This document shows positions 35,522 to 62,928 of a stretch of 64,000 bases of DNA, piece by piece. A program made the translations under genes and the position numbers. This DNA is from Verrucomicrobiota bacterium. GTDB taxonomy: Bacteria > Verrucomicrobiota > Kiritimatiellia > JAHIZV01. The DNA is taken from assembly GCA_018814445.1 (NCBI GenBank), contig JAHIZV010000218.1, forward strand, positions 2,285-66,284, read 5' to 3'. The notes under the pieces are model-generated. The model was given only the letters and a program-made list of their open reading frames with translations, had not been told where the DNA came from and did no database searches. The first letter of the stretch is position 1, and the number at the start of each line of letters is the position of its first letter.

Positions 35522-38155
35522 ATGCGCATATCGTTCAATAAAGAGATACTGCAGCGCATTACTCTGATTACATGTGTTTCTGTCGCCGCGACTGTCTCCA
35601 CTGCAAGTCAGACACTCCTCGTAGACTTCGGTAACAACTTATCGTTTCGAGGAACGAATGTGGTGAGTCCAGACTCAAACGGACATTACTGGAACAGCGT
35701 CCATTCCGCTGTGTACCACGCGGACATGGTCGATATCTCGAATAACACGACCACGGTGGATCTGGGATTCGATGCCGCGCCGGGAACGGACTTCTTCAAC
35801 GGTCCCTCCGGCACGAACGAGAATCCGGCGCTCTCCGAGTATGATGCGACTGCGCTCGGCGACCTTGGTGTGGATGAGGCGGTTTACGACTACTACGTCT
35901 CGTCGCGTTTTCAGGTCCAGGGCCTCGACACGGGGCGGACCTACAGCCTTACGTTCTTCGGTTCACACAAGTTCAGCGCGGATGATGCGACCGTCTACTC
36001 GGTCTACAGCAACACGAACTACACACAGGTCGTCGCTTCCGTCAGCCTGAACGTTCAGACGCCGGGATCGGCGTGGCTGCACAACAGCAACACGGTCGCC
36101 GTCATCAGCAACCTGGTGCCGCAGACCGGCAACATCCTGTATGTCGGCTTTGAAGGAAGCACCGGCGACAGCGGATACCTCAATGCGATGAAGATTGAAA
36201 GCGCTCCGCAGTCCGGCCCGCCCAGTCTCGAAGCTTATGTGAATCCCATGAACGGCAACGTTCCGGTTCCGAGGGAAACAAGGGTGGACGCCGACGAGAC
36301 GCGGAAGCTCGCGTTTCCCAGCGCGCGGGGATTCGGAAGGTTTGCCGACCCGGATATCGGGCCCGGACAGGACTTTGACGCGATCAAGGTGACTAACCTG
36401 CTTGATAGCGGGCCCGGTTCGTACCGCGACGCCATCATGTCCACGAACGGCCCGCGTGTAGTGATTTTCACTGTCAGCGGCACCATTGATCTCACCGAAA
36501 CCGTCCTGATGAGGGAGCCGCAGGACAACGTCTACGTTGCGGGCCAGACCAGTCCGGGAGGCATCCAGCTCAAATGCAGCGGCAACAATGAAAAAGCGCC
36601 GCTGCGCGCCGTCCGCACGCGGGACATCATTGCCCGTTTTCTGAAACTGCGGCCCGGGCTGGATCATGCGTTGAGTTCGGACGTCGACTCGCTCGCCATG
36701 AATGATGTTGAGAACAGCATCTTCGATCATCTCAGCCTGCAGTGGTCCACCGACGAGGCGGCACACATTACGTCGAAGGGCGACGGCGTCACGCTGCAAT
36801 GGTCGCTTCAATCCGAGCCGCTGCGCTGCGGCCCCTGCCGGAGCGATAATCATTCCCAGCACGATTACGGGGTCTTCTCCGACGTGAACAAGAACCTCAC
36901 GCTGTACAAGAACTTCTTCATGGGCGGGCGCTGGCGCAACCCGAATGTTCAGGCCACGAACGCGCTCGAGATGATCAACAACGTCGGCTACAACTACGGC
37001 GAGTACGCGGCGCAATTCTATGTGAATGCCACGCGCGGAAACCTTATCGCCAACATCATCGGCAACTGGTACTCAAAGGGCCCGCGTACCGCGGGCGACC
37101 CGCATATGCTCTTCGCGTCCTACGAGGGTTCGTCCAGCCACGGCTTCGAATTCTATGTGGATGGAAACATCGGCATGAGGGACACCTCGGGCGTGTGCAA
37201 CATCAACTTCCTCGCGCCTCATTTGACGAGTCCCGTCATGGAACAGAACGGAACACTGCTGACCCCGGACGGTCAGACCGGCATAGTTTTTGCGGTGGCC
37301 AGGGCGGACGGGTTGTCCATTCCCGCTGAAGATATCGTGTCCGCCGATCAGGCCATGAAAGATGTCATCGTTGGCGCGGGCGCCATGCAGGACATGTTCA
37401 GTACGCCGAGACGGGATCTCGTGGACGCGCGTTCCATGGGTCAGTTCCAGAACTGCGATGATACGGGCTACACGCCTCAGCCCGATCCGCTCGATGCGAT
37501 TCCGGCGCCCGGCTATCCGGATCTGACAACGAATACCACCTGGTCGTGGACGACCAATGACGTCGACGATGACGGCATGCTCGACGCCTGGGAGACGCTT
37601 TATGCTGATCTGAGCCTTGTCCCGAACGGTGATCCTGACGGGGACGGCTGGTCTAACATGGAAGAGTTCCTCAACTATATGGCGGGCGAGCACATTCAGT
37701 GGACCGGGACGGGTGATCCCGTCCTGGTCCCGCCCGTGTACTGCGGCTACCCGGTGGGGGTGCAGCCGACCGCCGACATGGACAGCGACGGCCTGCCGGA
37801 TGGATGGGAGTGGTTCCATTTCGGTCAAACGGACCATCCGAACGGGGAGCCCCACATCGATTGGGACGGCGACGGACACTCGAACCTTCAGGAGCTGTAC
37901 GCGGGAACGAACCCGACGAACGCATCATCGATCTTCATGATCAAAGAGGTGTCCCCGTCCGGAGACACGTACGAGGTCACCTGGCTGAGCGCGTCCGGCA
38001 AAACCTATGCCATCTACCGCACCGATGATCTCGTTTCCGGCTGGACCAATGCGGCATCGACCAACCACATTTCCGCCAGCCCCTCGGGCACAAACACCTG
38101 GTTCGATACACAGGCGCCAACCCACGGGGCGAGCTACCGCGTCAGGGTGGAGTAG
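35522..38155 (+). CDS. Secreted multidomain polysaccharide lyase (PL1 pectate-lyase-like) with an N-terminal 'DFG-YWNS' domain and the shared dockerin/TSP3-like plus beta-tail C-terminal module
   Basis: Signal peptide. N-terminal 'LLVDFGNNLSFRGTNVVSPDSNGHYWNSV ... QGLDTGRTYSLTFFGSHKF ... YLNAMKIE'. PL1-like 'IKVTNLLDSGPGSYRDAI ... VVIFTVSGTIDL', 'IFDHLSLQWSTDEAAHI', 'FMGGRWRNPNVQATNALEMINNVGYNYGEY'. C-terminal 'DPDGDGWSNMEEF', 'WDGDGHSNLQELYAGTNP', tail '...YAIYRTDDLVSGWTN...ASYRVRVE'. Confidence 0.7.
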   Translation: MRISFNKEILQRITLITCVSVAATVSTASQTLLVDFGNNLSFRGTNVVSPDSNGHYWNSVHSAVYHADMVDISNNTTTVDLGFDAAPGTDFFNGPSGTNENPALSEYDATALGDLGVDEAVYDYYVSSRFQVQGLDTGRTYSLTFFGSHKFSADDATVYSVYSNTNYTQVVASVSLNVQTPGSAWLHNSNTVAVISNLVPQTGNILYVGFEGSTGDSGYLNAMKIESAPQSGPPSLEAYVNPMNGNVPVPRETRVDADETRKLAFPSARGFGRFADPDIGPGQDFDAIKVTNLLDSGPGSYRDAIMSTNGPRVVIFTVSGTIDLTETVLMREPQDNVYVAGQTSPGGIQLKCSGNNEKAPLRAVRTRDIIARFLKLRPGLDHALSSDVDSLAMNDVENSIFDHLSLQWSTDEAAHITSKGDGVTLQWSLQSEPLRCGPCRSDNHSQHDYGVFSDVNKNLTLYKNFFMGGRWRNPNVQATNALEMINNVGYNYGEYAAQFYVNATRGNLIANIIGNWYSKGPRTAGDPHMLFASYEGSSSHGFEFYVDGNIGMRDTSGVCNINFLAPHLTSPVMEQNGTLLTPDGQTGIVFAVARADGLSIPAEDIVSADQAMKDVIVGAGAMQDMFSTPRRDLVDARSMGQFQNCDDTGYTPQPDPLDAIPAPGYPDLTTNTTWSWTTNDVDDDGMLDAWETLYADLSLVPNGDPDGDGWSNMEEFLNYMAGEHIQWTGTGDPVLVPPVYCGYPVGVQPTADMDSDGLPDGWEWFHFGQTDHPNGEPHIDWDGDGHSNLQELYAGTNPTNASSIFMIKEVSPSGDTYEVTWLSASGKTYAIYRTDDLVSGWTNAASTNHISASPSGTNTWFDTQAPTHGASYRVRVE

Positions 38156-38248: not shown

Positions 38249-41200
38249 CTACTGAGCCTGAACGCCAAGGCGGATATAGATCTTCCGCTCGGTCAGCGGA
38301 ACCAGATTGCTGACCGCATCGAAGTTGGGATCGGCTGCGCTCGTGGCTGAGAGTTCTGTGTAGCCGGCGTTGGTCCAGCTTCCTGCCAGCAGGTTCGTGC
38401 GCGACTGAAGGAAGTATGTGATGCCGCTGTCGATGCGGCGCGCGTATGTGTAGTGCACGACACTGGATCCGCCGGAGTCGGCGATCTCGATAGCGGGCAG
38501 GTAGCCGGTATCGAGTCCATTGGTCGGAACGCCTCCGAATCCAAATTCTCCAAGATTGAGAAGACCGTCACCGTCGTCGTCCGCATATCGCCCGCCGAGG
38601 CCGGGATAATCCAGCGCCCATTTCTCATAGGCAAAGGGAATGTCTCGGGCTTCGATCAGCATGGCATTCAGATAGCCTTCATTGCCGGCGGATCCTTTGA
38701 ATCCGACGTAGATCTTGTTGTCGTCATGCACGAGCAGGTTCGTGATAACGGCCACCGTGTTGCTGTTGTGCAGTTCAGATGAACCGGGCGTCTGAACGTT
38801 GAGCGTCGCGGAAGTGATCACGGTCGAGTAATTCGTGCCGGAGTAGATCGTGTAAACCGTCGCGTCGTCGGTGCTGAACTTGTGTGAGCCGAATAGGGTC
38901 AGATCATAGGTCCGGCCCGGATCCAGTCCCTGGATTTGAAACTTCGATGACACGTAGTAGTCGTTCACAGCGGCGTAAGAGCCGCCGATCAGTCCGAGCG
39001 CATTGGTATCGACGGCGTTCGTCGGCCCATTGAAACTGTCGCTGCCCGGCGCGTCGTCAAATCCAAGATTTATGCCGGTCGCAGTATTTGTTCTGTCGAT
39101 CAGGTTGGCATTGAACGCGCCGGACCAGACGCTGTTCCAGTAACTGCCTTTGCCATCGGGGTTGGAAACGGAAGTCCCGCGAAACGAGCTGTCCGCTCCA
39201 AAGTCGATCAGAATAGGACCGTGCTTTGGGGTTGTGGTTCTGACGGCGGCGCGTCCGTGCCAGAGGTGGCTGTTGGTGCCGCTTGAGCCCAGTGACACGG
39301 TCAGCACATTACTCTGCACGTTGGTCCAGGCCGCTGGCTGCCCTTCCAGCTGCACCGCGACAGGTCCGTCAAAGCCTGCCGGGAGTACCATCGTTGCGTT
39401 CGTGTCACCGACGGAATAGATCCAGAATTCGACACCCGCGCTGTTCGTCTGAACGACATAGGCGAGGCTATCAGACTTGCCGGGCGGAATGATGCAGGCG
39501 GCCAGCATGTCCGGCGACTCGGCGATGTAGCCGTACGGGGCGAGCGTCCAACCGTTCGTGCTCATCGGATTCGGACCCAGGTTGGCGGTTACTTCAACCG
39601 TACCGTATTTCGCCGCGATGAAGCCGTTGTCGGTATCGACCGCATTCGTTCCCCAATGATGCTCGAAGGAATAGACGGGTTCTCCGATGTAGCGCGCACA
39701 GACTGTTTTCTGCAGCCGGTCGATCCAGTACAACCATTGGCGGATCGGCGTACTCTCAACTTCTTCATCCCTGACGACATACGTCATGCCGTAACCGAGT
39801 CCCAAGGTCCATGCTGCGACTTCATGGTTGTGGACCGCGCCGCTGAGGTTGTTGTAGACCATCGACAGCTTGTCGTGGGCTATATGCTGTGCCAGGGGGA
39901 ATATAGTCCACGCCTTTGTCGAGTAGCGTTCACGCAGATACCTGCGCCAGAAGGGAGCGTTGGTGGTGGGCGCAAGTCCCCAGGCCAGTCCGCAGAACTG
40001 GGCTTCGTGGTTCACCAGCCGGTCGAAACCGTTTTCGGTCGATACCGGCATATACTCGCTGTCTTCGGCCGCGATGGCTGCGAGACCGGAGATGTAGGCA
40101 TGTGGCGCCGGGGAGTTGGTGTTCATGTCGTACTGTCCGGTACGCGCACCGATCTGATCATGGAAGATTATGTCCACGGGGTAATTCGTGATGAACAGTC
40201 CGCGCGTGTGTCGATTTGCAACCTGCACATCAGGATGCCACGGTGTGACGGTGTACCCGCCCTCTCCGAAGTACTCTTCAAATGAGAGTGATCCGTCCGG
40301 ATCGCGCAGAAGAGGATCTTCGCCCTTCGCAGTAAATGTTGGTCCGCGAGGATCCTCTCCCCAGAAAGTAGGATTGGTATACGGCATGACCATCTGGTCA
40401 TTGTCTTTCGCCTGTGCGAGCAGATTCGTGAACTCGGCCGATGTCCCGAACGTCGCGTTTGGAGGCAAGTGATCCGGGTATTGCTTGTCGAATCCTCCGT
40501 AGAGGTACTGTGCCAGATGAATGATTGAGGGTGAGGGCAGCTGGGAAAGCCGCTCAGTGAGACCGGTGGCTGTACCCAGACTGTTGATCAGCACCGAGTG
40601 TTTGAATGTGTTCAGTGTCGATGCCGACATCTTGTTCGTCAGCGTGCGGACAAAACCGTTCGCGCTGCTGTATGCAGCTAGTGAGTTCTCAACGGTCTCA
40701 CCAAGCACAAGCCTCACGACAGGCGACTGCCACGTTGTGTTTGTCTCCACATACGGGGTGAAAGCACGCTGGAAATATCCTCCTGTTGCATCGGCTCCCC
40801 ATTCAAGTCTTCCCGGAATGAACAGCGTCGCGGGATTCGTTGAGCCTGACCACGGATCGGCAGGAACGGGCTGAACGCCGTACAGCGAAGAGTTGCCGTT
40901 AGTCGTTTCGAGCTGGAAAAAGTCGGCGAATGCCGGCGGATAAAGTATGTTGTTCGTGTAATAGAGATTCGGCTGCAGAGCCTGATAGAAAGCATAACCG
41001 GCGACTTCGAACCAGTGACCGCCCGACTGAATATAGTTCCCAACCTCCGCAACCGTGGCAGACACGCCGCCTCCGAGGGACGCGGGCACGAGCTCGCCAT
41101 ATGGATTAAGGATCGCCAGGACATTCGTATTGGCCAACGCGTTGGTCATTTCGTCGACGTTGGTCAGTTCGAGAATATCTATTCCATTCGCGACAAGACT

Positions 41201-42280
41201 GGTCGAGGCATGTAGACGACCGAGCCACTGGTCGATTCGGACCTCTGACGGCCACGATTCACCGATCACCGGTCCGCGTTCCATGCTGAGTACGGCCAAA
41301 TTGGTTCGCCCGCCGGATGTCTGTGCGAGGTGCTCGATTGCGGCCACTACGACGTCCAGTGAGAATTCGACGCGCGTGGCGTCCACGAGGCCGCCGATAC
41401 GCATCAGCCAGCCGGCGCCGGCTCCGCCGCCGAGGTGACTGCCCGAGAAGAAGGCTCCGTGGGGCGAATCGAGTAGAATCACATCCGCCTGCCCACTTGC
41501 CGGAGGACGGTGAACAGTCGCGCTAGCAGAGGCCCATTTGTTGGACAAGTCGCTCCCCAACCACGCGACGCCGTCGGTCGTGAAGTTGAGCGCGACCACA
41601 TCGTAATTCGTGATAACAGCGGAACTGCCGTACAAGCTGACGTATCCTGCAGGACCAACCGATGTCTGCTTCCAGCTAGCCGGATCGTCTTCGGTCTGAA
41701 TTAGAAAGTAGTTCGTGTTGTACGCCATCCCAACGCCGTCGCTGGAATGGTTCGGCGCGATGAAACGCTTCATGACGGAAGGTTCAAAGCGGAGGAGTGC
41801 CGGCAGAACCAATTGGGTCACCGCGTTCGAGGCTGTATCGACCGCTGCTGACATGTCTATGCCGTCATCACGATTTGAGATCGTAATGCTGATAGCGTAC
41901 TCAACGTTACTGTACGTCAGGTAAAGGCTGTTGCTCGGAGCAGGGAGAGACCAGGAGAACGTGTCGGTGGGTGATGTCGAAGAGAAGATCGCGGCGTTGA
42001 CAGTTCCGCGGATGCCGAGCGCAGTGTTCGTATATGACAGGGACCAGAGCCCCTCTGCACCGCTTCGGGCAATGTCGCCATTGCCGGCCGTGATGGATTT
42101 GATCGATCCGTTCGTGTCATTGATAAGAACGCTATGACTGGTGCCCGTGAAAAGGAAACCTTCGGCAGTATGTTGAATGCCCGCAACGACCGTGTTCGCC
42201 GCAAGCCCGAGGCACACGGCCACCATCGCTGCAGTGGCACCTGTTCGCGGCACGCTGCGACGCATGAATACAAATTGCAT
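38249..42280 (-). CDS. Giant secreted protein with an unassigned glycoside-hydrolase-like central region, a C-terminal 'DFG-YWNS' domain and the shared dockerin-like/beta-tail module. The track start at 42319 is an alternative.
   Basis: Signal 'MQFVFMRRSVPRTGATAAMVAVCLGLAANTVVAG'. Central 'MVMPYTNPTFW ... VDIIFHDQIGAR ... YISGLAAIAAEDSEYMPVSTENGFD'. Then 'ILIDFGADSSFRGTSVSNPDGKGSYWNSVW ... QGLDPGRTYDLTLFGSHKF ... YLNAMLIE'. Ends 'DDDGDGLLNLGEFGFGGVP ... YFLQSRTNLLAGSWTN ... KIYIRLGVQAQ'. Confidence 0.7.
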   Translation of the reverse strand: MQFVFMRRSVPRTGATAAMVAVCLGLAANTVVAGIQHTAEGFLFTGTSHSVLINDTNGSIKSITAGNGDIARSGAEGLWSLSYTNTALGIRGTVNAAIFSSTSPTDTFSWSLPAPSNSLYLTYSNVEYAISITISNRDDGIDMSAAVDTASNAVTQLVLPALLRFEPSVMKRFIAPNHSSDGVGMAYNTNYFLIQTEDDPASWKQTSVGPAGYVSLYGSSAVITNYDVVALNFTTDGVAWLGSDLSNKWASASATVHRPPASGQADVILLDSPHGAFFSGSHLGGGAGAGWLMRIGGLVDATRVEFSLDVVVAAIEHLAQTSGGRTNLAVLSMERGPVIGESWPSEVRIDQWLGRLHASTSLVANGIDILELTNVDEMTNALANTNVLAILNPYGELVPASLGGGVSATVAEVGNYIQSGGHWFEVAGYAFYQALQPNLYYTNNILYPPAFADFFQLETTNGNSSLYGVQPVPADPWSGSTNPATLFIPGRLEWGADATGGYFQRAFTPYVETNTTWQSPVVRLVLGETVENSLAAYSSANGFVRTLTNKMSASTLNTFKHSVLINSLGTATGLTERLSQLPSPSIIHLAQYLYGGFDKQYPDHLPPNATFGTSAEFTNLLAQAKDNDQMVMPYTNPTFWGEDPRGPTFTAKGEDPLLRDPDGSLSFEEYFGEGGYTVTPWHPDVQVANRHTRGLFITNYPVDIIFHDQIGARTGQYDMNTNSPAPHAYISGLAAIAAEDSEYMPVSTENGFDRLVNHEAQFCGLAWGLAPTTNAPFWRRYLRERYSTKAWTIFPLAQHIAHDKLSMVYNNLSGAVHNHEVAAWTLGLGYGMTYVVRDEEVESTPIRQWLYWIDRLQKTVCARYIGEPVYSFEHHWGTNAVDTDNGFIAAKYGTVEVTANLGPNPMSTNGWTLAPYGYIAESPDMLAACIIPPGKSDSLAYVVQTNSAGVEFWIYSVGDTNATMVLPAGFDGPVAVQLEGQPAAWTNVQSNVLTVSLGSSGTNSHLWHGRAAVRTTTPKHGPILIDFGADSSFRGTSVSNPDGKGSYWNSVWSGAFNANLIDRTNTATGINLGFDDAPGSDSFNGPTNAVDTNALGLIGGSYAAVNDYYVSSKFQIQGLDPGRTYDLTLFGSHKFSTDDATVYTIYSGTNYSTVITSATLNVQTPGSSELHNSNTVAVITNLLVHDDNKIYVGFKGSAGNEGYLNAMLIEARDIPFAYEKWALDYPGLGGRYADDDGDGLLNLGEFGFGGVPTNGLDTGYLPAIEIADSGGSSVVHYTYARRIDSGITYFLQSRTNLLAGSWTNAGYTELSATSAADPNFDAVSNLVPLTERKIYIRLGVQAQ

Positions 42281-42327
42281 CGTCACATCATTCACTATCG
42301 TCTCCCGGGCGTTAAACATGGGGATGC

Positions 42328-42337
42328 TTTACGTAAA
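42328..42337. promoter_or_regulatory. Palindromic box TTTACGTAAA, site 3, in the divergent promoter between the two giant genes
   Basis: 'TGCTTTACGTAAACTTA' between the minus-strand gene ending at ~42280/42319 and the plus-strand SGNH gene. Confidence 0.5.
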
Positions 42338-42397
42338 CTTATGCAGTTTGCCGAACTGTTGAAGAGCCGGGACCATGCGAGTTATATTTGTCTCTAT

Positions 42398-45300
42398 ATG
42401 AACAACGCTCTCAGGATGCTTAGTCAACAAGGGGGACCCCGACCCAGAAATGTCGCCGCCGTTCTCTGGGGCGTACTCCTCACTTTGACGCTGACTGCAG
42501 CACCTTGCGGACAAGCAGCGCCTTCCAACGGTGTAATTGGTGTTCTGGGTTCCTCAGTGGCCAAGGGATACAACGGCGGCGGGGGATACACCAACGGATC
42601 GTACGTCGGTGGCTATATAGGCCAGCTGACGCCAGTCCTCGAACAACGGGGATGGGGCGTTACCAATGTATCCACACCGGGAGACAATACCTCGAAGGCG
42701 TACACCAACATCTTCAACAAACTGATTCCCGCAAATCCGGACTACGCCGTTGTGGCCCTCTCCCTCGCGAACCAGGGCCTGGTCTTTTCCTCGGATCGCG
42801 AAGCCACTCTGGAATCGTTCCGCTCCGGTCTGACCAACATCCTGCACACGATCACAACAAACGGAATCCAGCCCGTTGCCGTCACCCTCGTTTATCCGTC
42901 TCAGGCGTATACGCTGGACATGTACGACTACGTGAAACGAATGAACCTCATCATTAATTCATGGGACATTCCCAGTATCAACCTGATGGGCTCACAGAAC
43001 GACGAGCAGGGCCGGTGGGTTTACGAATATATTAACGACCCGTACCACCCTACGGCCGATGGACACGCCGAGTTTTTCTACACCGTCGTCCCCACCCTCT
43101 TCGATGCCATCCGAGTGGGAAAGACCAACCGGCCGTCGCTGCCGCCCACCGGCCGGTTCATGCGTGTTACACAGGAGAGCGACCAGCCTGCACCGTTGGT
43201 TTACGAGCCGGAATACACGATGCACTCCTTTACAGCGAACTTCCAGGTCCGGACCACCGGAACCGGAACCGTTGCCGCCATCCGTTCGAGCTATACCGAG
43301 CCCCTCGTGCTGATTGACTTCGGGCCAACCAACGATGCCCTCGGGCGCGCCACTGCCAGTCCGGATGCCTATGGGAATCATTGGAACAGCTGGCGTCCGG
43401 ATTCCCTGTCTGCGGGAACTGCGTCGAACAACTTAATCGATGTCGCCGGCGCACCTACCGCTATCGACATCGCAATTACCTCTGCCTTCAGCAGTGCAAG
43501 CGGACGCTCCAGCGGGTTCGGCCTTTTTCAGCCCGAGGGTCCCGACCCCGAACTGCTGGGTTCCCTGGCCGTCGAAACTGCTACCGAGGACTACTTCCGT
43601 CTGACCAGCAGCGCTGGACTGACGCTCAGTGGACTCGACACCGGCACGGTATATACACTGCGCATTTTCGCCTGCCGCGAATCCTCTGTCATGAAGCGTA
43701 CGACGGATTTCCAGGTGACCGACCGTAATGGGTCCACCACCTATTCGATGCTGACCTCGGGTGCCAACACGGGGCGGGACGGAGCCTATGACGGCAATAA
43801 CCATCGCGCGATCGGATTCCAGGATCTATATCCGAAGACCAACGGAACACTGCTTGTCTCGCTCAGCACCACGAACGAAGGGTTCATCAGCCTCATGGAG
43901 ATCGGGCGCTCCACGCCCGTGCCGACCAACATCTATGGTACTGTGGAAGTCCGTGACAGCTCTCTGGCGTATGTATCTCCCGGCGGCGTCGAGATCACCG
44001 CGCCCGTCGACGTCAATGACGGCGCCTTCCAAGACATAAGCCTCAGCCACAACTTCGCACTGCAGCGCACGTATCTGTTTGTGAACGGCCTGCTGTACGG
44101 AACGGTTGGAGAGCGCCTTGTTCCCGATCGTTTTGTCCTCGGCGGATCGGACCAGGCCGACGCTTCCGCTGCGCCGACACAGGCAGACTACCAGGCCTGG
44201 TGTCTCTATCGTTCGTCCTGGACTCCCGGCGAAGCAATGGCGCAGCACCTGGGCGCGCTTCAACAGGCCAGCCTTGAGGTGGCGGCCCCACTGGACGACG
44301 GCGCCTTCGCGCTCGACGATCCTGTAACCAACGTTGCGCAGAGTATGGCGAGTGCATATGTTCGCGGCACCAACGTGGAGGTCGGCATCGGCCCGACACC
44401 GCCCAGTTCGTTGACCGCGCGCTCGTACGATACCGACTCGATCGAGCTTTCGTGGAACAACAACGCCGGCGGCGGCCTGGGCACGGAACTGCATCGGCGA
44501 ACAGCCGGGACGCAGTGGAACCTTGCGGCGGATCTGGGCGCCGGGGTGGCTGCTTTCACCGACACCGGTCTGGACGCCGGTGAAGAATACATCTATCGGG
44601 TCGCAGCAAAGGACGGGGCCTTGTTGAGCGGATTCTCCACCTCGATAACCGCTTCTGTCGGAGCGGACGGATCAAGCTACGAGGAATGGATGTCGGACTA
44701 TATCCCGGGCGACTTGCGAACCTGGCTGATAGACTTCAACTCAACGGTGAGTACGAACTACGGGGGCGCGGTGTGGAACACCCTCTCGAGCTGGACCGAT
44801 GCCACACCTCGCGCGTTGGTCGATACCGGCGGCGTGACAGCCGCGCGCGCATCCATAGCTCTAATAGACCCTTTCGATACGTCCCGCTCCGGCAATGGAA
44901 GCCCTCTCAGCACCAACGACTACGCGGCCGATGCGCAGAGCACGCTGTTTGTATCCACCGAGTATCTCGACGACCAACTCGATGCGGGAAAGGCCAGTAT
45001 TCGATTGAGCGGCCTGAGGCGAAGCCTCAAGTACAACGTCACCATCTTCGCCCGCCGCGGCACGGTAGTATCGGGTTTCGACTATCGGAGCCGTTATGAG
45101 GTGGAGAGTCTCAACGGTAACTCGGCCGCCGAAGTCGACACAGCCACCAACGAAAATACCGTGATGTTCGCGGATCTCTCACCGGACGCAGACGGCAATA
45201 TCACCCTCAGCATCGGTCCCGCCGACAAACCGAACGGCGCGATCTTCGCCGGGATCAGCCTGATGAAGGTCAGCGAAGTTCCGCGGGTGACCAACGACTT

Positions 45301-55875: not shown

Positions 55876-56745
55876 ATGACATGCACACCTCGTTACATAT
55901 CCGCCGGTGTCCTTGGCCTGCTGGCGGGCCTCATGATTCCCGCCATTTCGGAATCCATCATGACTGACGTGCAGAGCTACAGGAAGGTTGAGAACATCGC
56001 GTACCGCGAGGGACCGGAGCTGGAGGACTATGCGCGGGAACGGTGTCGTCTGGACATCTACTTCCCCGAAGGCGCCGCAGACTTTGCCACCGTCGTGTGG
56101 TTCCACGGGGGCGGTATGACGGCAGGAGAGAAGTATGTGCCGGGTGAGCTAATGAACCAGGGAATCGCGGTCGTCGCGGCTGAATACCGATTAAGTCCGC
56201 ATGTGAACGCGCCTGCGTACATCGAGGATGCTGCGGCCGCTGTCGCCTGGGTCTTCAAGAACATCGAGCAGTATGGCGGTTCAACTCAACGGGTATTTGT
56301 CGCCGGCGCTTCTGCAGGGGGTTACCTCGCGACCATGGTCGGCCTCGACAACCAATATCTCGCGGCCCACGGCATGGACGCGAACCGGATCGCCGGACTG
56401 ATTTCGCTGAGCGGCCAGGCCATCACACATTTCACGGTTCGCGCAGAGCGCGGCATCAGCGGCACACAACCGATGGTCGACGAACTGGCTCCGCTGTTTC
56501 ACGTCCGTGGTGACGCGCCTCCTTTGCTGCTGGTCACCGGCGACCGCGATCTCGAACTCTTCGGCCGCTACGAAGAGAACGCGTATTTCCAGCGCATGAT
56601 GAAAGTAGTTGGCCATGCGGATAACGAACTGCACGAGCTTAAAGGCAGGGACCACGGCGGTGTGGAGGCGCCCGCGCACAGCCTTCTTCTCGAGTTTCTG
56701 AAAAGGATCAACAAAACCATATCAACTGCCGGAGAAACGAAATGA
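55876..56745 (+). CDS. Secreted alpha/beta-hydrolase esterase (Abhydrolase_3-type; candidate carbohydrate esterase)
   Basis: Signal peptide. 'VVWFHGGGMTAGEK' HGGG oxyanion motif. 'FVAGASAGGYLA' nucleophile elbow. ATGA overlap with the downstream GH65 gene. Confidence 0.8.
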   Translation: MTCTPRYISAGVLGLLAGLMIPAISESIMTDVQSYRKVENIAYREGPELEDYARERCRLDIYFPEGAADFATVVWFHGGGMTAGEKYVPGELMNQGIAVVAAEYRLSPHVNAPAYIEDAAAAVAWVFKNIEQYGGSTQRVFVAGASAGGYLATMVGLDNQYLAAHGMDANRIAGLISLSGQAITHFTVRAERGISGTQPMVDELAPLFHVRGDAPPLLLVTGDRDLELFGRYEENAYFQRMMKVVGHADNELHELKGRDHGGVEAPAHSLLLEFLKRINKTISTAGETK

Positions 56746-59063
56746 CTTCCAATAACCCGTGGTATGCAGAAGGTGATCCGTGGGTGCTGACCCAGACTGA
56801 GTGGACCCCGGACAAGAACATTTACTTTGAAACTGTTTTTACGCAATCCAATGGCTACATGGGCATTCGGGGCTACACGGAGGAAGTGAACGAGGGGCCG
56901 GACTCCTACCGCGAGGGATATCTCGCGGGTGTTTTCGGGCACACAGACGAAGCGGCGCTGGAGCAGACCCGGGTTACGTATGACTGGCCTATGCTGGCCA
57001 TGATTACACTGCCCGAGCTTTTCGCCTGTGAAATCGAATTGGACGGGGAGGCCTTCAAGCTTTCTGAAGGAACCGTTTCCTCATTCACCCGCTCTCTCAA
57101 CATGCGCAACGGCGTTCTCAGCCGGCACGTCGCGTGGGTCAGCCCAAAAGGCCACTGGACACACCTCGTCTTCGAGCGGTTCCTCTCGTCTGCCGTCCCG
57201 CATCTCGGCATGCAGCAGATTACCGTGACTCCCGAAAACTGGTCCGGTCCGGTCACTCTGACTTTTGGACTTGATGGCGCCATTCCGACCTACTTCCGTT
57301 GCGGCGACCGCGCGATGGCTCACGTGCCTCAGGATCTTCTACAGGATCCGCGAATCGCCGTGAGCGATGAAGGTTCAGCGACATTGACATTCAAGACAAG
57401 GGGAACCGAACACACCGTCAGCATAGCGTCCAGTGTTGCGGGCGGACCGTGCAAAACGGTCGAGTCGAGCCCGGCCGTCCTGCAGCAGAAAGCCCGCCTT
57501 TCTATCAAGGAGGGCGAATCAGCAACAGTGCTCCATTCAGTGGCCGTCGTCAGTTCGAGGGATGATGTGGATCCGTCGGATGTCCCGGAACTGGCCGCGG
57601 ACATAGCCGGTGATGCGGCGAAAGCGGGGTATGGAGAATCGTTGGCCGAGTCGGAAGCCGTCTGGGAACATCGCTGGGCGATGTCTGATGTCGTGGTCGA
57701 CGGTCCGGCAAAAGACCAGGCCTATGCCCGGTTCAGCTCTTTCAGCATGCTGCAAATGGCTCCGTTCCATACGGACAACATGAGCGTGCCTGCGCGCGCC
57801 TACGCTTTCAACCGGTATCACGGCCTCTATTACTGGGACAGCGAAACGTTCCTGATGCCTCTGTATCTCCATACGCATCCCGAGGTGGCGGAGAATCTGC
57901 TGAGCTTCCGCTACCGCACGCTCGAGGGAGCGCGGAAAACCGCGCGCCAGTTGAAAGCCCCGGGTATCTGCTTTCCGTGGATGACCGATTCTGAAGACGG
58001 CACTGAACAGGGTCCATGGAATATCGGCGACTACCTCTGGCATCAGAACGCGGACATCGCTTACGCCATCGATCAGTACGTGAAGGCCACGGGAAACACG
58101 GTGTTCATGCGCGACAAAGGCCTGGAGATGATCGTCGAGAGTGCGCGCTTCTGGATGTCCCGGCTTGAGAAAGACGAAGATGGCGTTATGCACCTGCACG
58201 ACACCGTAGGACCGGACGAACTGGACAACCACGGCAAAGACAATGGCTTCACCAGTCTGATGGCCCGCCGACATCTTCGCCTTGCCGCGCACTGGGCAAG
58301 TGAAATCCGCTCCTCCTACCCCGCCGAGGCGCAGAGACTGAGCGAAAGACTGGAGATCAGCGCGGCAGAAATCACGGGTTGGAGCCATGCCGCGGACGCG
58401 ATAGCCGCGCCCATGATTCCGGATCTGAACATCCCGCTGCAGGACGAGTTTCTGTTGGCGAAGAAGCCGCTCAGTTTCGAGGGTTTGACCGCGGACGAGG
58501 CTTTCGCGATGAGGCACACACACCGCGTCGTCAAGCAGTCAGACATCGTACTCGTCATGTACCTCCTGCAGGATGAGTTCACGGTGGAGCAGATGAGAAC
58601 TGCTTACGACTTTTACGAGCCGATGACACTTCACTACTCCTCGCTTAGCTACAACACTCATTCCATACTGGCGACCAAGATCGGCCGGGATCAACAGGCT
58701 TATGACTACTTCCTGAAGGCGGCCGGCCTGGACCTGGACAACCTGCGCGACGCAACGAGCGACGGCCTTCATGCGGCCGCTCTGGGAGGAACCTGGCAGA
58801 CGATCATGTACGGCTTTCTCGGCATGCGCTACGGGAAGGATGCCATCGTGTTTGAGCCGCGTCTTCCTGAAACCTGGAAATCCGTGTCTCTGCGGATCGT
58901 ATTCCGCGGATACGTATTGAGCCTGAACCTGACGCACGACGTTCAGCGAATTGATGTGGAGGGCTCCGAAGGACGGGGCCGACCGCGAGTGATCCTTAAC
59001 GGCGAACCCCATGTTCTAAGCGATGGTCTGAGCATCACTTCGTCAGCGAAAGTGTTGAGTTGA
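56742..59063 (+). CDS. GH65-family glycoside hydrolase/phosphorylase (kojibiose/maltose/trehalose-phosphorylase-like)
   Basis: N-terminal 'WVLTQTEW ... ETVFTQSNGYMGIRGYTEEV ... GYLAGVFG' (GH65 N-domain). A central (alpha/alpha)6-type region follows. 773 aa, no signal peptide. Confidence 0.7.
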   Translation: MTSNNPWYAEGDPWVLTQTEWTPDKNIYFETVFTQSNGYMGIRGYTEEVNEGPDSYREGYLAGVFGHTDEAALEQTRVTYDWPMLAMITLPELFACEIELDGEAFKLSEGTVSSFTRSLNMRNGVLSRHVAWVSPKGHWTHLVFERFLSSAVPHLGMQQITVTPENWSGPVTLTFGLDGAIPTYFRCGDRAMAHVPQDLLQDPRIAVSDEGSATLTFKTRGTEHTVSIASSVAGGPCKTVESSPAVLQQKARLSIKEGESATVLHSVAVVSSRDDVDPSDVPELAADIAGDAAKAGYGESLAESEAVWEHRWAMSDVVVDGPAKDQAYARFSSFSMLQMAPFHTDNMSVPARAYAFNRYHGLYYWDSETFLMPLYLHTHPEVAENLLSFRYRTLEGARKTARQLKAPGICFPWMTDSEDGTEQGPWNIGDYLWHQNADIAYAIDQYVKATGNTVFMRDKGLEMIVESARFWMSRLEKDEDGVMHLHDTVGPDELDNHGKDNGFTSLMARRHLRLAAHWASEIRSSYPAEAQRLSERLEISAAEITGWSHAADAIAAPMIPDLNIPLQDEFLLAKKPLSFEGLTADEAFAMRHTHRVVKQSDIVLVMYLLQDEFTVEQMRTAYDFYEPMTLHYSSLSYNTHSILATKIGRDQQAYDYFLKAAGLDLDNLRDATSDGLHAAALGGTWQTIMYGFLGMRYGKDAIVFEPRLPETWKSVSLRIVFRGYVLSLNLTHDVQRIDVEGSEGRGRPRVILNGEPHVLSDGLSITSSAKVLS

Positions 59064-59151: not shown

Positions 59152-62100
59152 ATGAAAGAAACCAAAACGCACGCACTTCTGCACCTCTTCTTTGTGGCCG
59201 TATTTTCTCTCACGGCTGTTTCGCACGCGGCCCCCACCAATCTCATGGTCTATGGCTCGTCGGTGGCCCGGGGCTACTCGGCCAGGGATGACTTCGGGGC
59301 ATATACCACCAACAACGGCTCCCTCGGGCTGGCTTATGCCGGCCGGCTGACCACATTGCTGGGCCGGGACGGGTGGTACGTTACCAATTCTTCTACACCG
59401 GGCGACAACACGGCCCTGGCTATCGCCGACTTCAACAGCAAAGTGGTTTCGCAGTCGCCGGATTTCGTGCTGATCGGGTTGTCTTTGGGCAATGAAGGCC
59501 TGCACTCCACGCCAAGACCGGATTCGGCCGTCAACATCTTCAGCAACGGCATGCAGGAGCTGATCGGGTTATGCAGGACGAATGATTTCTATCCAATCGT
59601 CACGCTCGTATATCCCAACAACAACTTCTACGAGCGGCACTACGACCGGGTCAAGGCGATGAATCTTGTGATGAATACGTGGGACGTCCCCAGTTTCAAT
59701 TTACTGGGCGCTCTTGATGACGGCACGGGAAAGTGGGTCGACGGATACTGGAAAGATCCATTACATCCCAATGCTGACGGACACCTTGAGTTCTTCTGCA
59801 CGTTTGTTCCCAGCCTCTTCGACGCAATCAATGCAGGAAAGACCAACAGCCCCGACATCAGCAGCGCGGTCAACTTCGCGCGCGCAACGCGGGATTTGAC
59901 CGAACCCGCTCAGATCGAGTTCGTTCCCTCCAACACCATGCACTCCTTCACGACCCGGTTCCGAGTTCGTACGACGGATACGGGCAGCGTCGCTGCCGTG
60001 CGGCTCGCACCTCCAAAGATACTTGTCGATTTCGGGCCGAACAACGATGACGACGGGCGGCGTGCTTCGGATCCTGATGAAAACGGAAACTACTGGAACA
60101 GTTGGCGGCCGATCGACGGCTATACCAATCTGAATTACATCGTCTCGGGAACCTCAACATCCGGATTGATAACTTCGGACAATCAGTCCACAGAAGTCGG
60201 CCTCGAGATCACGGAGAACTTCACGGGCGCCAACGGAATCCAGAATGGCGGGCTTGATGACCCGGATGGTCCTCAGTTCTCTCTCCTCGGCGACTTCGCC
60301 GTGGAGACAGCCACGGAAGACTATTTCTACGACGGCAATACCGCAGCCTTCAAGATCACGGGCCTCAATACCGGCAGCCTCTACACGCTGCGGTTCTTCG
60401 GGACGCGAGCCTGGTCGTCGGAGACGCGTGAGACCCGCTATGTTGCCGCGGGCGGCAATGGGCCTTTGACCAATGATCTCGTTACGTCCGGCAACAACGT
60501 CGGCAGCGACGGCGTATATGATGGCAACGATGACACGATCGTGAGCATCACGGGACTGGCCGCGACCGCGAGCGGTGTAATCACGGTCAGACTGTCCACG
60601 GTGCAGGGATCGTACAGCTACCTCGGCATTATGGAAATCGCACAGGAAACACCCGTTGTCACCAACGGTTACGGGACCATTGAAGTCCGAGACACGGAGA
60701 TCGCGTACGCATCTCCGAGCGGGTCGGAGATTACTGCTTCGGTCGATGCGAACGACGGAAGTTGGTACGACATCGCCCTTTCCCACCGATACGCGAAGCA
60801 GGAGACGCTCCTGTATGTGGACGGAGCAGAAGCCGGAACACTCTCCGAAAGCATCGTCCCTCAAGCTTTCGTGCTGGGCGGACCGGATGCGGCGGACGGC
60901 GCACCGCCATCACCTTCGACCGCCGATTACCAGGACTGGTGCGTCTACCGCGCGGCCTGGACAGAGGCAGAAGCATTGGCCCAGCATGAGGGTCATCTGC
61001 AGCAGGCCAGCCTCGAAATCTGCGCGCCGCTGAGCGACAGCACTTTTCCGCAAGGAGGCAGGGCAACGAACGAAGCACAGAGCCTCTCCGTCGTGACCAT
61101 CAACATCGACGACCTCAGCGCGACGGCTGCCGTCACGGCGCCAGGCAATCTCCAGGCCGCGTCCTACGCCCTGGACGAAGTGGAGTTGTCGTGGACGGAC
61201 AACAGCACCACCGAAAGCGGCTACGTCGTCGAACGCAGAATCAGTGAGTCAGGCGCAATGTGGACCAACATCGCAGCACTCTCTGCCGGCTCGACCTCCT
61301 ACAAGGACAGCGATGTGTCCGCAGGCATCACTTATGATTACCGGGTGTCGACCGACGAGGGAACCGTGCAAAGTGAATACTCGAATGTGGTCACCATCGA
61401 ACCGGGTGAAGACGGACAAACCTACCAGACCTGGCGCAACCGGTTCTTTCTGGCGAATGCCGGCCGCTACCTTGTAGATTTCAACACGCTCGCAAGCCCC
61501 GACTACGGCGGCGTAATCTGGAACACTGCGACCAGCCTCACCGCAATGATCTCCTACGACCTGACGGCGACCAATGGCGATGCTTCGGCCGGGTACGTAC
61601 TGACGATTACGGATGCTTTCGACCAGTTCAGGTCCGGCAACGGAAGCCCTCTGAGCGGGTTCGACAATGACGCTCAGAGCACGATCTTCGTCACAACCAA
61701 TGACACGCCGAAGATGGGTCAGGTCACGCTTTCAGGTTTGAACGACCGCTTTATCTATGACGTCACGGTTTTCGGCAGGCGCGGCTCACTCTTCGCCGGA
61801 TACGACTACCGCGCCCGGTACAACGTCAGCGGAAGAGACGGGGACATCAGTTTTGAAGTGAATACAGCCACGAACGAAATCGCCTCCCATGTATTCGGTT
61901 TGAGGCCACGGGACGGACGCATCGCCATAGACGTGGCAGCACCGGACGCGCCGACAGGCAAAGTCTTTGCCGGCGTCAGCCTGCTGGCCTTCGAGGACAT
62001 GAGTCCGGGCAACACCTTCCTTATTGATTTCAATGACCGTGCCGGCGTTACGTATCCGGACGGGCAGTCCTGGAACGTGGTCACGGGCCCTACCGCCGCC

Positions 62101-62928
62101 GCAACCTACAATCTGGTCGACGTATCCGGCAGCGCCGCAGAAGGCTTCTCGTTGACGATGAATGATGCGTTCAGTGACTCGCGTGACAAGAACGGCGGGG
62201 CAATTGGAGGATTCACGGAAGAGGCGGAGAGCGTCCTGTTCAACCTGAACGGCTTCGGAGATACCGCTCAAATGACGTTCTCCGGACTTGACGTGAGCCT
62301 GACCTACGACTTCACGTTCCTCGCGAGCAGGAGAAATCCATTCGCGTCGTCGTATGATTACAATGCGAGGTTCGTGTTCACCGGCGGCGGAGACCCGGTC
62401 ACCAGCGTCGTTGACTCCGCCGATAACGATTACTACACGCTTATCGAAGGTATTCAGCCGGACGGCGGAGGTGACATCGTTCTCACGGTCGATTCACCGC
62501 AGGATGTCGGCGGCAAAACGGAGTTCCCGGTCCTCAACCTGATTCGCATGACCGAGGAAAGCATGAGCAATACCGTGCAGTCGGCATCTTCCGATGATCC
62601 TGACGGCGACGGCATTGCCAACTTTGTTGAGTACGCACACAACTTCGACCCGACGAATACTGGTGTGAACACGTTCTCAGTGGATCAGGTCGGTGTGGAA
62701 GGCGGTGGAACAACCTTCGTCGGCTATTATGACAGGTACAAGCCGGCCCGGGAAATCACCTACGGCGTCGAAAGCACCACCAACCTTCTCGCGCCCGACT
62801 GGCAGCCCGATGCGGGTATCAGCTTGAGCGTGGTCAGCGATGCCGGCACAGCACAGACCATCAAACTGCAAAGGGCCGTGACGGAGACGACCCTCTTCAT
62901 CCGGGTCGCTACTGAATACACGCCCTGA
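59152..62928 (+). CDS. Giant secreted SGNH/GDSL-hydrolase multidomain protein (paralog 2), with the same architecture as 42398..46222
   Basis: Signal 'MKETKTHALLHLFFVAVFSLTAVSHA'. SGNH blocks 'LMVYGSSVARGY', 'VTNSSTPGDNTA', 'IGLSLGNEGL', 'DPLHPNADGHLEF'. 'KILVDFGPNNDDDGRRASDPDENGNYWNSWRP ... ITGLNTGSLYTLRFFGTRA ... YLGIMEI'. LamG-like 'YGTIEVRDTEIAYASPSG ... LYVDGAEAGTL'. FN3 'NLQAASYALDEVELSWTDN ... YDYRVSTDEG'. Two further 'LVDFN.../FLIDFN...' domains. C-terminal 'DPDGDGIANFVEYAHNFDP ... YGVESTTNLLAPDWQP ... LFIRVATEYTP'. Confidence 0.8.
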   Translation: MKETKTHALLHLFFVAVFSLTAVSHAAPTNLMVYGSSVARGYSARDDFGAYTTNNGSLGLAYAGRLTTLLGRDGWYVTNSSTPGDNTALAIADFNSKVVSQSPDFVLIGLSLGNEGLHSTPRPDSAVNIFSNGMQELIGLCRTNDFYPIVTLVYPNNNFYERHYDRVKAMNLVMNTWDVPSFNLLGALDDGTGKWVDGYWKDPLHPNADGHLEFFCTFVPSLFDAINAGKTNSPDISSAVNFARATRDLTEPAQIEFVPSNTMHSFTTRFRVRTTDTGSVAAVRLAPPKILVDFGPNNDDDGRRASDPDENGNYWNSWRPIDGYTNLNYIVSGTSTSGLITSDNQSTEVGLEITENFTGANGIQNGGLDDPDGPQFSLLGDFAVETATEDYFYDGNTAAFKITGLNTGSLYTLRFFGTRAWSSETRETRYVAAGGNGPLTNDLVTSGNNVGSDGVYDGNDDTIVSITGLAATASGVITVRLSTVQGSYSYLGIMEIAQETPVVTNGYGTIEVRDTEIAYASPSGSEITASVDANDGSWYDIALSHRYAKQETLLYVDGAEAGTLSESIVPQAFVLGGPDAADGAPPSPSTADYQDWCVYRAAWTEAEALAQHEGHLQQASLEICAPLSDSTFPQGGRATNEAQSLSVVTINIDDLSATAAVTAPGNLQAASYALDEVELSWTDNSTTESGYVVERRISESGAMWTNIAALSAGSTSYKDSDVSAGITYDYRVSTDEGTVQSEYSNVVTIEPGEDGQTYQTWRNRFFLANAGRYLVDFNTLASPDYGGVIWNTATSLTAMISYDLTATNGDASAGYVLTITDAFDQFRSGNGSPLSGFDNDAQSTIFVTTNDTPKMGQVTLSGLNDRFIYDVTVFGRRGSLFAGYDYRARYNVSGRDGDISFEVNTATNEIASHVFGLRPRDGRIAIDVAAPDAPTGKVFAGVSLLAFEDMSPGNTFLIDFNDRAGVTYPDGQSWNVVTGPTAAATYNLVDVSGSAAEGFSLTMNDAFSDSRDKNGGAIGGFTEEAESVLFNLNGFGDTAQMTFSGLDVSLTYDFTFLASRRNPFASSYDYNARFVFTGGGDPVTSVVDSADNDYYTLIEGIQPDGGGDIVLTVDSPQDVGGKTEFPVLNLIRMTEESMSNTVQSASSDDPDGDGIANFVEYAHNFDPTNTGVNTFSVDQVGVEGGGTTFVGYYDRYKPAREITYGVESTTNLLAPDWQPDAGISLSVVSDAGTAQTIKLQRAVTETTLFIRVATEYTP

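Follow-up and report, generated by a model that had tools for sequence, protein, structure and literature searches.

A repeated domain of predicted malectin-like jelly-roll fold in four large proteins of a Verrucomicrobiota bacterium: a candidate carbohydrate-binding module family

Introduction

In the CAZy definition, a carbohydrate-binding module (CBM) is a contiguous sequence with a discrete fold that lies inside a carbohydrate-active enzyme, and carbohydrate binding has been demonstrated for one or more members of its family. New beta-sandwich CBM families are described regularly. One mark of the malectin/CBM57 group is the binding of ligands of the Glc-alpha-1,3-Glc type via aromatic loop residues and an Asp. 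Members include animal malectin (2k46), the C-terminal domains of the beta-glucuronidases BuGUS-2 (5uj6/6d50) and BdGUS (6ed1), and the FERONIA ectodomain (6a5e). The C-terminal domains of both enzymes have been described as CBM57/malectin-like, and that of BdGUS reportedly gives form to the active site and the oligomer and does not bind substrate on its own (bioRxiv 10.64898/2026.06.20.733316). YxiM of Bacillus subtilis (PDB 2o14), a biochemically uncharacterised putative CE12 rhamnogalacturonan acetylesterase, carries an N-terminal module on its SGNH esterase that has been described as an appended jelly-roll CBM (PMC9487903). Classical beta-sandwich CBMs on esterases and lyases include the N-terminal module of CE2, CBM35 of Ape1 (8gld), 8wc1, 8x8h, 8xmz, CBM77, CBM22, CBM6 and CBM61. 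In the polysaccharide-utilisation loci (PULs) of Bacteroidota, surface glycan-binding proteins (SGBPs) of the SusE/F type are small, secreted, surface-anchored, non-catalytic beta-sandwich proteins. Here we compare with these systems a domain repeated in a 64,000-nt stretch of Verrucomicrobiota DNA (the window), to which an earlier note had drawn attention.

Results

The window encodes eight copies of a 176-217 aa domain in four ORFs, termed A to D. Protein A (877 aa; 35522..38155, + strand) is composed of a signal peptide, copy A1 (aa 29-230; 35606..36211, +), a PL1-like pectate-lyase region (aa 264-495), TSP3-like repeats and a C-terminal beta tail. Protein A matched a PelZ-like NCBIfam model (E 4e-16); its PDB matches were pectate lyase 9buj, at E 6e-15, and VexL, at E 1e-3. 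Protein B (1356 aa; 38249..42319, - strand) contains a signal peptide, a large region that matches DUF6259 over aa 585-726, copy B1 (aa 1032-1228; 38636..39226, -; HMM i-E 6e-80), a C-terminal TSP3-like motif and a beta tail. Protein B had no sequence relative in the PDB; a metagenomic protein of 2526 aa consists of a B-like half fused to a C/D-like SGNH half.

Proteins C and D are SGNH/GDSL esterase paralogs with three copies each. In protein C (1362-aa ORF; 42134..46222, + strand), the esterase (aa 137-312) is followed by C1 (aa 388-596; 43295..43921, +; HMM i-E 4e-98), an unassigned linker domain, an fn3 domain (aa 756-839), C2 (aa 863-1050; 44720..45283, +; subtype-II HMM i-E 1.5e-80), C3 (aa 1054-1236; 45293..45841, +; subtype-II HMM i-E 3e-82) and a C-terminal tail. 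The annotated start of this ORF is probably about 88-94 codons too early, the likely true start being M89 (42398) or M95 (42416). Protein D (1258 aa; 59152..62928, + strand) is identical to GenBank MBU0679295.1, a 'hypothetical protein' of a Verrucomicrobiota MAG, and has the same order: esterase (aa 34-211), D1 (aa 286-502; 60007..60657, +; HMM i-E 2e-99), linker domain, fn3 (aa 663-749), D2 (aa 770-950; 61459..62001, +), D3 (aa 954-1135; 62008..62556, +; HMM i-E 3e-84) and C-terminal tail. Alignment revealed that a separate C-terminal tail is common to all four proteins. Two small PEP-CTERM proteins are also encoded within the window.

When the whole window was scanned with HMMs in all six frames, there was no ninth copy beyond A1, B1, C1-C3 and D1-D3. 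The scan and the ORFs thus agree with the earlier note, which had described eight copies of a ~190-aa domain in four giant proteins, and the coordinates place them as it had done, with one copy in the PL1-like lyase, one in the 1356-aa protein and three in each SGNH paralog. The copies fall into two subtypes, I (A1, B1, C1 and D1) and II (C2, C3, D2 and D3), the latter made up of the second and third copies of the SGNH paralogs, which the earlier note had called a divergent subtype. Within subtype I, pairwise BLASTP aligned A1 with B1 (59% identity, E 8e-77), C1 with D1 (41% identity, E 2e-49) and A1 with D1 (E 2e-14). Within subtype II, it linked C2 to D2 (E 8e-38), C3 to D3 (E 1e-24) and D2 to D3 (E 1e-21). 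Pairwise BLAST detected no link between the subtypes (E >=0.2); their profiles were aligned by hhalign over 165 columns with a probability of 96.6% and an E of 4.8e-10, and the HMM of each subtype hit the other with independent E values of 1e-4 to 1e-3. On these sequence comparisons, all eight copies, both subtypes included, are homologous.

The motifs that had been picked out by eye were found in the translations and persisted in proper multiple alignments (MAFFT), except that 'YWNSW' is confined to C1 and D1, whereas A1 and B1 read 'YWNSV'. Across the family just three residues are invariant: Asp in 'DFG', Asn in 'WN' and Leu in 'GL'. In the 'ASR' motif, A1 and B1 have His where Arg is otherwise conserved. 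The family-wide Asp (DFG) and Trp-Asn (WN), together with a later Asn, may contribute to a sugar or Ca2+ site.

The domain was covered by no Pfam or NCBIfam model when hmmscan was run on the four window proteins (E up to 1), on 62 subtype-I relatives (E up to 10) and on 67 subtype-II-like relatives (E up to 0.001). When every PDB sequence was searched with profiles, no solved relative was retrieved, only an fn3-like match of 25-45 residues at 'GL.P..Y.v.v.A', and we found no description of the family in the literature. The domain can still be called unassigned, as it originally was, after these searches of the window proteins, their 129 relatives and the PDB. Malectin and Malectin_like (PF11721, PF12819) matched neither the window proteins (E up to 1) nor the 62 subtype-I relatives (E up to 10). 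The 67 subtype-II-like relatives had matches to 41 families (E up to 0.001), and neither of these two was in the 25 commonest. In hhalign, family alignments of 62 and 37 sequences were compared with human malectin and with an alignment of 10 malectins, a metazoan-only set of low diversity; the probabilities were 0.3% and 0.1%. Neither hmmscan nor the hhalign comparison with malectin yielded a sequence-level link to any characterised CBM. Fibronectin type III (PF00041) was rejected: the matches span only 25-45 residues, compared with a seven-strand domain of ~85 aa. CBM6/CBM35/CBM32 (discoidin), PA14 and LamG were rejected as well, being neither profile matches nor the closest structural neighbours.

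AlphaFold2 models of the two subtypes (pLDDT 96.6 and 93.1) predict a jelly-roll beta-sandwich of ~13-15 strands, that is, a malectin-type fold as in malectin and CBM57. Foldseek against solved structures returned moderate similarity (E ~3e-4, TM-score normalised to query length 0.51-0.54). The nearest were the CBM57/malectin-like domains of BuGUS-2 and BdGUS, both GH2 enzymes of Bacteroides, the FERONIA ectodomain, which is likewise malectin-like, and YxiM's jelly-roll module. The YxiM module is shorter than the present domain (129 residues aligned), occurs as a single copy and was not retrieved by any profile search with the family. After these four came dozens of bona fide CBMs, among them porphyran-binding 8xmz, the pectate-lyase binding domains 8wc1 and 8x8h, and CBM77, 22, 35, 6 and 61. 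Such classical CBMs scored below the malectin-like domains, are smaller (110-150 aa) and share no sequence similarity with the domain. The domain is contiguous, confidently predicted to fold autonomously, and lies inside PL1-like, SGNH and GH99-like proteins.

The family is large, with at least 577 clusters of subtype I at 90% identity and at least 875 subtype-II-like clusters at 50% identity, and has members in Verrucomicrobiota, Planctomycetota, Kiritimatiellota and Bacteroidota. The annotations encountered for members were 'hypothetical protein' or 'PEP-CTERM protein', or covered only the esterase part. Most subtype-I relatives (50 of 62) are standalone surface proteins made up of a signal peptide, the domain and a PEP-CTERM end; among subtype-II relatives, tandem arrays that carry a T9SS tail and no enzyme are common. 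Tandem proteins have 2-4 copies. The domain is joined to PL1, DUF6259 and SGNH modules in the window, and elsewhere to GH99-like and SGNH modules (locus L009), DUF4886 and alpha/beta-hydrolases. The expectation that it always accompanies CAZyme catalytic modules thus fails protein by protein, given the standalone forms and tandem arrays, and holds only at the level of the locus.

Eleven independent loci were examined, the window included. Nine of them have genes for CAZymes, regulators or transporters and usually two or more copies of the domain, in adjacent genes; at L007 and L008 there was no carbohydrate context. The gene type that most often adjoins the domain in other genomes is GH99-like (L005, L009, L011, L012 and L013). 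In the window this type is a 451-aa GH99-like/GH71-like glycosidase (32144..33499, - strand; Pfam GH99 E 4e-11, GH71 E 9e-6) that matched endo-alpha-1,2-mannosidases in the PDB (E 5e-7). A 583-aa homologue of GH87-type alpha-1,3-glucanases (51719..53470, - strand; Pfam CatAgl_D1 and D2) matched the solved enzymes 7c7d (E 1e-66) and 5zru (E 3e-64), and GH87-type genes adjoin domain genes in L002 and L004. Directly upstream of D lie a BD-FAE-type esterase (55876-56745) and a GH65 phosphorylase/hydrolase (56742-59063), together 55876..59063 on the + strand; kojibiose and maltose phosphorylases are equally close to the latter. In L010 the same pair comes ahead of a standalone protein with a D1-like domain, and in L002 it has domain genes next to it. 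The domain thus recurs at loci with GH99-like, GH87 alpha-1,3-glucanase, GH65, esterase, regulator and transporter genes.

Discussion

The jelly-roll models, the neighbours among CBM57/malectin domains, YxiM and other CBMs, and the variety of catalytic partners support the CBM-like role suggested by the earlier note, and we infer from them that the domain binds carbohydrate. It is reasonably likely that the repeat is a non-catalytic, malectin-like (CBM57-like) beta-jelly-roll module of a large uncatalogued family, with polysaccharide binding as its likeliest job. The domain probably represents a new CBM family.

The module might instead hold proteins on the cell by binding the producer's surface glycan or the exopolysaccharide of the PEP-CTERM/exosortase system, with no part in nutrient targeting. 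The PEP-CTERM sorting signal is reportedly linked to exopolysaccharide-producing organisms; this tie, the PEP-CTERM end of the 50 subtype-I relatives, the two small PEP-CTERM proteins of the window and the two loci outside any CAZyme context would fit such self-attachment. However, the shared C-terminal tail of the four window proteins is already a possible anchor, the standalone forms have an anchor signal of their own, which would make a second attachment module redundant, and the genes of most loci (for glycosidases, phosphorylases, sugar transporters and LacI/GntR repressors) suggest catabolism. We regard this explanation as unlikely. An accessory role in oligomerisation, or in lending loops to catalytic domains, without independent glycan binding, has precedents in the CBM57 domains of BdGUS and BuGUS-2, which reportedly give a loop to the active site and join oligomer assembly (bioRxiv 10.64898/2026.06.20.733316), and in the malectin-like domains of FERONIA, whose partners are RALF peptide/LLG complexes according to the title of PDB entry 6a5e. 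An active-site accessory should have a fixed partner and a fixed position, whereas the present domain is found on unrelated catalytic folds, on the N- or C-terminal side, with fn3 and linker domains in between and in 2-4 tandem copies, and it is abundant as a standalone protein. Such a role is quite improbable.

That the domain is itself an enzyme, such as a small jelly-roll lyase, hydrolase or esterase, would make the standalone members catalytic. We consider this very unlikely: none of the top structural neighbours is a catalytic module, the only invariant residues are Asp, Asn and Leu, with the Arg changed to His in A1 and B1, and 2-4 tandem copies beside a bona fide catalytic domain are typical of binding modules. 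Least credible, and close to negligible, is the idea that the domain belongs, as a divergent member overlooked by eye, to an existing family (fn3, GH36 C-terminal, PA14, LamG, discoidin/CBM32 or CBM6/35). Weak profile matches to fibronectin type III (best E 1.9e-5) and weak Pfam matches of some relatives to fn3 and Glyco_hydro_36C speak for it; the predicted jelly roll of ~13-15 strands speaks against fn3.

If the domain is a polysaccharide-binding module, it would tether four secreted enzymes of the window (a PL1-like lyase, a putative DUF6259-type glycosidase and the SGNH esterases C and D) to a single substrate that would be complex and probably esterified, and the three copies on each SGNH esterase might provide multivalent avidity. 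In other genomes, the standalone module would be displayed on the cell surface via a PEP-CTERM, IPTL-CTERM or T9SS signal, beside glycosidase, regulator and transporter genes, and may act as a glycan-capture protein. Because GH87, GH71/GH99-like, GH65, GH31 and GH97 genes are neighbours, the ligand could tentatively be a gluco- or manno-glycan with alpha linkages, possibly alpha-1,3. This lead is a doubtful one, since the neighbouring enzymes are heterogeneous: alpha-glucan enzymes are mixed with esterases and a PL1 lyase.

By functional analogy only, judged from gene order and general knowledge, the standalone forms resemble SusE/F-type SGBPs in being small, secreted, surface-anchored, non-catalytic beta-sandwich proteins whose genes lie between regulator, glycosidase and transporter genes or beside a TonB-dependent receptor (L004, L012 and L013). 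Unlike those proteins, they appear to be anchored via PEP-CTERM/exosortase or T9SS instead of lipidation, occur in other phyla and belong to another fold family. A bolder and rather unlikely proposal is that a new CBM family for alpha-1,3-linked gluco- or manno-glycan, for example alpha-1,3-glucan/nigeran-type or Glc/Man-alpha-1,3-Man-type structures, would serve Verrucomicrobiota, Planctomycetota and Kiritimatiellota both as enzyme-borne targeting modules and as PEP-CTERM-anchored surface capture proteins, the PVC-superphylum counterpart of SusE/F-type proteins in a conserved GH99-like/GH87/GH65/esterase utilisation locus.

The domain fills a useful annotation gap and is not a conceptual surprise. 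Its family spans four phyla of polysaccharide degraders. Little is known of substrate-capture proteins in Verrucomicrobiota, Planctomycetota and Kiritimatiellota, and their CAZymes and PULs would be better annotated if the domain were recognised as a binding module of malectin-like type. Such recognition would also offer a handle on the substrate of the recurrent GH99-like/GH87/GH65/esterase locus, and would supply candidates for a new CBM family as well as probes for its ligand.

Eight Copies of One Domain

The domain of about 190 aa that the earlier note had picked out by eye proved to be a real repeat: the quoted motifs are present in the window translations, and a comparison of the eight segments (176-217 aa) confirmed the observation. 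The copies lie on four large ORFs spanning 35522-62928, namely, the PL1-like lyase A (35522-38155, + strand, 877 aa), the DUF6259 protein B (38249-42319, - strand, 1356 aa), and the SGNH esterases C (42134-46222, + strand, 1362 aa) and D (59152-62928, + strand, 1258 aa). GenBank holds a protein identical to D under MBU0679295.1, where it is called a "hypothetical protein" from a Verrucomicrobiota metagenome-assembled genome. An HMM scan of all six frames of the whole window returned exactly eight copies and no further one.

Within subtype I, BLASTP linked A1 to B1 (59% identity, E 8e-77), C1 to D1 (E 2e-49), and A1 to D1 (E 2e-14); within subtype II, it linked C2 to D2 (E 8e-38), C3 to D3 (E 1e-24), and D2 to D3 (E 1e-21). 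The two subtypes were not joined by BLASTP. They were aligned by hhalign over 165 columns with a probability of 96.6% and an E value of 4.8e-10, and reciprocal HMM cross-hits likewise joined them. Conservation was judged on a 37-sequence alignment of both subtypes and distant relatives, and it survived proper alignment, with common positions retained: the Asp of "DFG", "WN", a Phe, an "A..D" helix, "GL....Y", "ASR" or "GSH", a late Asn, and a Gly. Only Asp, Asn, and Leu residues are invariant, and the Trp occurs in at least 90% of the sequences.

Sequence Family and Predicted Fold

The description of the domain as unassigned was borne out by searches of Pfam-A, NCBIfam, and PDB sequences. The eight segments were blank in hmmscan against Pfam-A and NCBIfam; in the Pfam/NCBIfam scan of relatives, the 62 of subtype I gave no family match on the domain even at E values up to 10, and the 67 subtype-II-like ones matched only in their partner domains. 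When all PDB sequences were searched with three profiles, the only matches were fibronectin type III (fn3) chains, over 25-45 residues around "GL.P..Y.v.v.A". Homology to fn3 was rejected, as the resemblance is local, covering a strand and tyrosine corner, and the domain is predicted by AlphaFold2 to form a jelly roll with some 13-15 strands. Comparison of the family profiles with malectin by hhalign gave nothing; this test had limited power because the search seeded with human malectin yielded only near-identical animal orthologues. No description of this domain family was found in literature searches.

The AlphaFold2 model of A1 (62-sequence alignment) had a pLDDT of 96.6 and a pTM of 0.93, and that of D2 (37-sequence alignment) had values of 93.1 and 0.89. 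The closest structural neighbours were the GH2 beta-glucuronidases of Bacteroides uniformis (6d50; scores 12.3 and 12.8) and Bacteroides dorei (6ed1; 12.0 and 12.1), the FERONIA malectin-like ectodomain (6a5e; 11.3 and 12.4), and B. subtilis YxiM (2o14; 11.8 and 12.0). A 2026 preprint (bioRxiv 10.64898/2026.06.20.733316) describes the additional domain at the C-terminus of BuGUS-2 and BdGUS as "CBM57 or malectin-like". Foldseek was less emphatic, with a best E value of 3e-4 and TM-scores normalised to query length of 0.51-0.54. On these models the domain would have a malectin-like fold, and on sequence it appears to stand outside the malectin family. It constitutes a new sequence family of considerable size, which belongs to a well-known kind: CBM-like beta-sandwich modules with a malectin-like fold.

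Distribution and Architectures

The subtype-I profile retrieved at least 577 clusters at 90% identity, a lower bound from a search limited by its word index. The subtype-II profile gave no match in the word-indexed homologue search; its exhaustive representative search yielded 875 clusters (50% identity), and for 198 of these the E value was 1e-10 or lower. Among the named sources are Puniceicoccales, Phycisphaerales, Pirellulales, Anaerohalosphaeraceae, Pontiellaceae, and Dysgonomonas. Carriers in culture include Puniceicoccales CK1056, which has a 253-aa standalone homologue (P0003), Pontiellaceae B12227, and Dysgonomonas sp. 520. The domain does not always accompany CAZyme catalytic modules, a possibility raised in the earlier note: 50 of the 62 subtype-I relatives consist of a signal peptide, the domain, and PEP-CTERM, mostly in about 250 aa, and one relative has IPTL-CTERM. 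Subtype-II-like relatives carry 2-4 tandem copies per protein. Among the 67, the partners were Lipase_GDSL_2 (19), the T9SS tail Por_Secre_tail (17), Lipase_GDSL (15), fn3 (14), DUF4886 (7), and PEP-CTERM (5), and occasionally alpha/beta-hydrolases and CBM9, CBM6, or CBM35. The architectures of both groups indicate that the domain is not confined to enzymes.

Two small secreted window proteins (12150-12830 and 46210-46998, both - strand) have clear C-terminal PEP-CTERM signals ("IIPEPSVLGLL...RRRRIR" and "LIPEPTSFLLL...LLRRL"), indicating that this genome uses exosortase-type sorting. The eight window copies are on proteins with a C-terminal tail unlike PEP-CTERM. This tail, shared by all four proteins, comprises a TSP3-like motif of calcium-binding type, "D.DGDG..N..E", and, after it, a beta-rich domain some 90 aa long ("..S.TNLLAG.W.."); it occupies aa ~770-877 of A, ~1245-1356 of B, ~1250-1362 of C, and ~1147-1258 of D, with pairwise E values of 7e-19 to 4e-3. 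It had no Pfam assignment except TSP3_bac in A. A protein from another genome (P0035) has domain and tail arranged as in B. The tail possibly serves in sorting or anchoring.

Partner Regions in the Window Proteins

In A, the PL1/PelZ-like lyase region matches a pectate lyase in the PDB, 9buj (E 6e-15). Proteins C and D each contain one GDSL/SGNH esterase and one fn3 domain; for the SGNH domain of D, the PDB sequence search found no relative. In B, the Pfam-A/NCBIfam scan recognised DUF6259 as the only known module. Its aa ~50-1030 (about 1000 residues) had no PDB sequence relative and, in Pfam, gave a partial DUF6259 match (E 1.2e-7), a weak DUF5696 match, and nothing else; judging from context, this is possibly an uncharacterised glycoside-hydrolase-like catalytic region. 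In a 2526-aa metagenomic protein, P0123, which JGI annotates as "lysophospholipase L1-like esterase", a B-like half (61% identical to B residues 32-1224) is joined to a C/D-like SGNH half (48% identity to D). This Rosetta stone fusion argues for a functional link between B and the esterases C and D.

Taken at its longest, the ORF of C overlaps the 5' end of the divergent gene B, beginning 186 nt within it (42134-42416 being the part concerned), and its extra N-terminal stretch of about 90 residues has no signal peptide. A start at Met89 (42398) or Met95 (42416) would give C an N-terminus and signal peptide like those of its paralogue D. In both SGNH paralogues, the first domain copy is followed, ahead of fn3, by a conserved stretch of some 120 aa (C aa ~597-720, 43922-44293; D aa ~505-625, 60664-61026). 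It follows the pattern [quoted passage not shown], matched no Pfam family, and may be a further beta-sandwich absent from the catalogues.

Gene Neighbourhoods

Ten further independent loci were compared with the window, which also encodes GH99-like, GH87 homologue, GH1, and GH65 genes; the GH87 homologue matches solved alpha-1,3-glucanases at E 1e-66. A related-locus search seeded with protein D gave only three loci. In Puniceicoccales CK1056 (L004), a GH87 alpha-1,3-glucanase, an MFS transporter, and LacI accompany a 762-aa three-copy protein, a standalone copy, a TonB-dependent receptor, GH31, and an SSF transporter. In Pontiellaceae (L002), GH65, GH87, and a BD-FAE esterase precede three genes with four copies and then an MFS transporter. 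L010 reads TPR, LacI, BD-FAE esterase, GH65, HAD, and a standalone D1-like protein, an order resembling the esterase-GH65 arrangement upstream of D. GH65, a BD-FAE-type esterase, a GH87 homologue, and LacI form a set met with repeatedly in Verrucomicrobiota, Kiritimatiellota, and metagenomic contigs (window 51719-59063; L002 37-5865; L010 4071-7979; L004 1-2642), which points to a conserved locus for the use of an uncharacterised polymer containing alpha-glucosides.

In the Planctomycete-type loci (L005/L006, L009, L011, L012, and L013), at least two domain genes lie next to a GH99-like/GH71-like glycosidase and to either a GntR regulator or an ECF sigma factor; in L009, a GH99-like protein carries one copy and an SGNH protein another. 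In Planctomycete loci, the standalone domain gene is followed immediately downstream by the gene for a conserved protein some 485 aa long (L005 8787-10244; L009 8833-10299; L011 9809-11263), with one N-terminal domain copy and, for its C-terminal half (about 240 aa), no Pfam match. In Dysgonomonas (L001), two copies occur with Big_2, SGNH, and a T9SS tail, and a hybrid two-component regulator adjoins. No carbohydrate context was seen among the neighbours in L007 and L008. The window also encodes, at 27229-32103 (+ strand), a protein of 1624 aa in which five lamin-tail domains (LTD, E 7.5e-64) are combined with a CotH kinase-like domain (E 9e-33).

Probable Function and Ligand

The domain is probably a non-catalytic carbohydrate-binding module. 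The models favour the CBM-like role first proposed, predicting an autonomous jelly roll whose nearest neighbours are CBM57 and other CBMs. These are two of six features that form the signature of a non-catalytic CBM, together with varied catalytic partners and positions, tandem copies, surface-anchored standalone forms in sugar-utilisation operons, and few invariant residues. That the domain attaches proteins to the producer's own envelope or exopolysaccharide seems unlikely. A role as a protein-interaction or active-site accessory, weighed with the varied partners, is quite unlikely. That the domain is a cryptic enzyme is improbable, given how few residues are invariant, and its being a divergent member of an existing family, considered next to the blank family scans, is very improbable.

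The recurrence of GH87, GH71/GH99-like, GH65, GH31, and GH97 neighbours points tentatively to a candidate ligand, a gluco- or manno-glycan with alpha linkages that are possibly alpha-1,3. The window GH65 does not fix the ligand, since kojibiose and maltose phosphorylases are equally close to it. The natural substrate would be more complex because a PL1 lyase and three kinds of esterase are present. Malectin binds Glc-alpha-1,3-Glc; its agreement with the alpha-1,3 proposal is a noteworthy coincidence, not evidence.

The family represents a real and useful annotation gap, not a conceptual surprise, and its standalone surface forms may be a PVC analogue of surface glycan-binding proteins.
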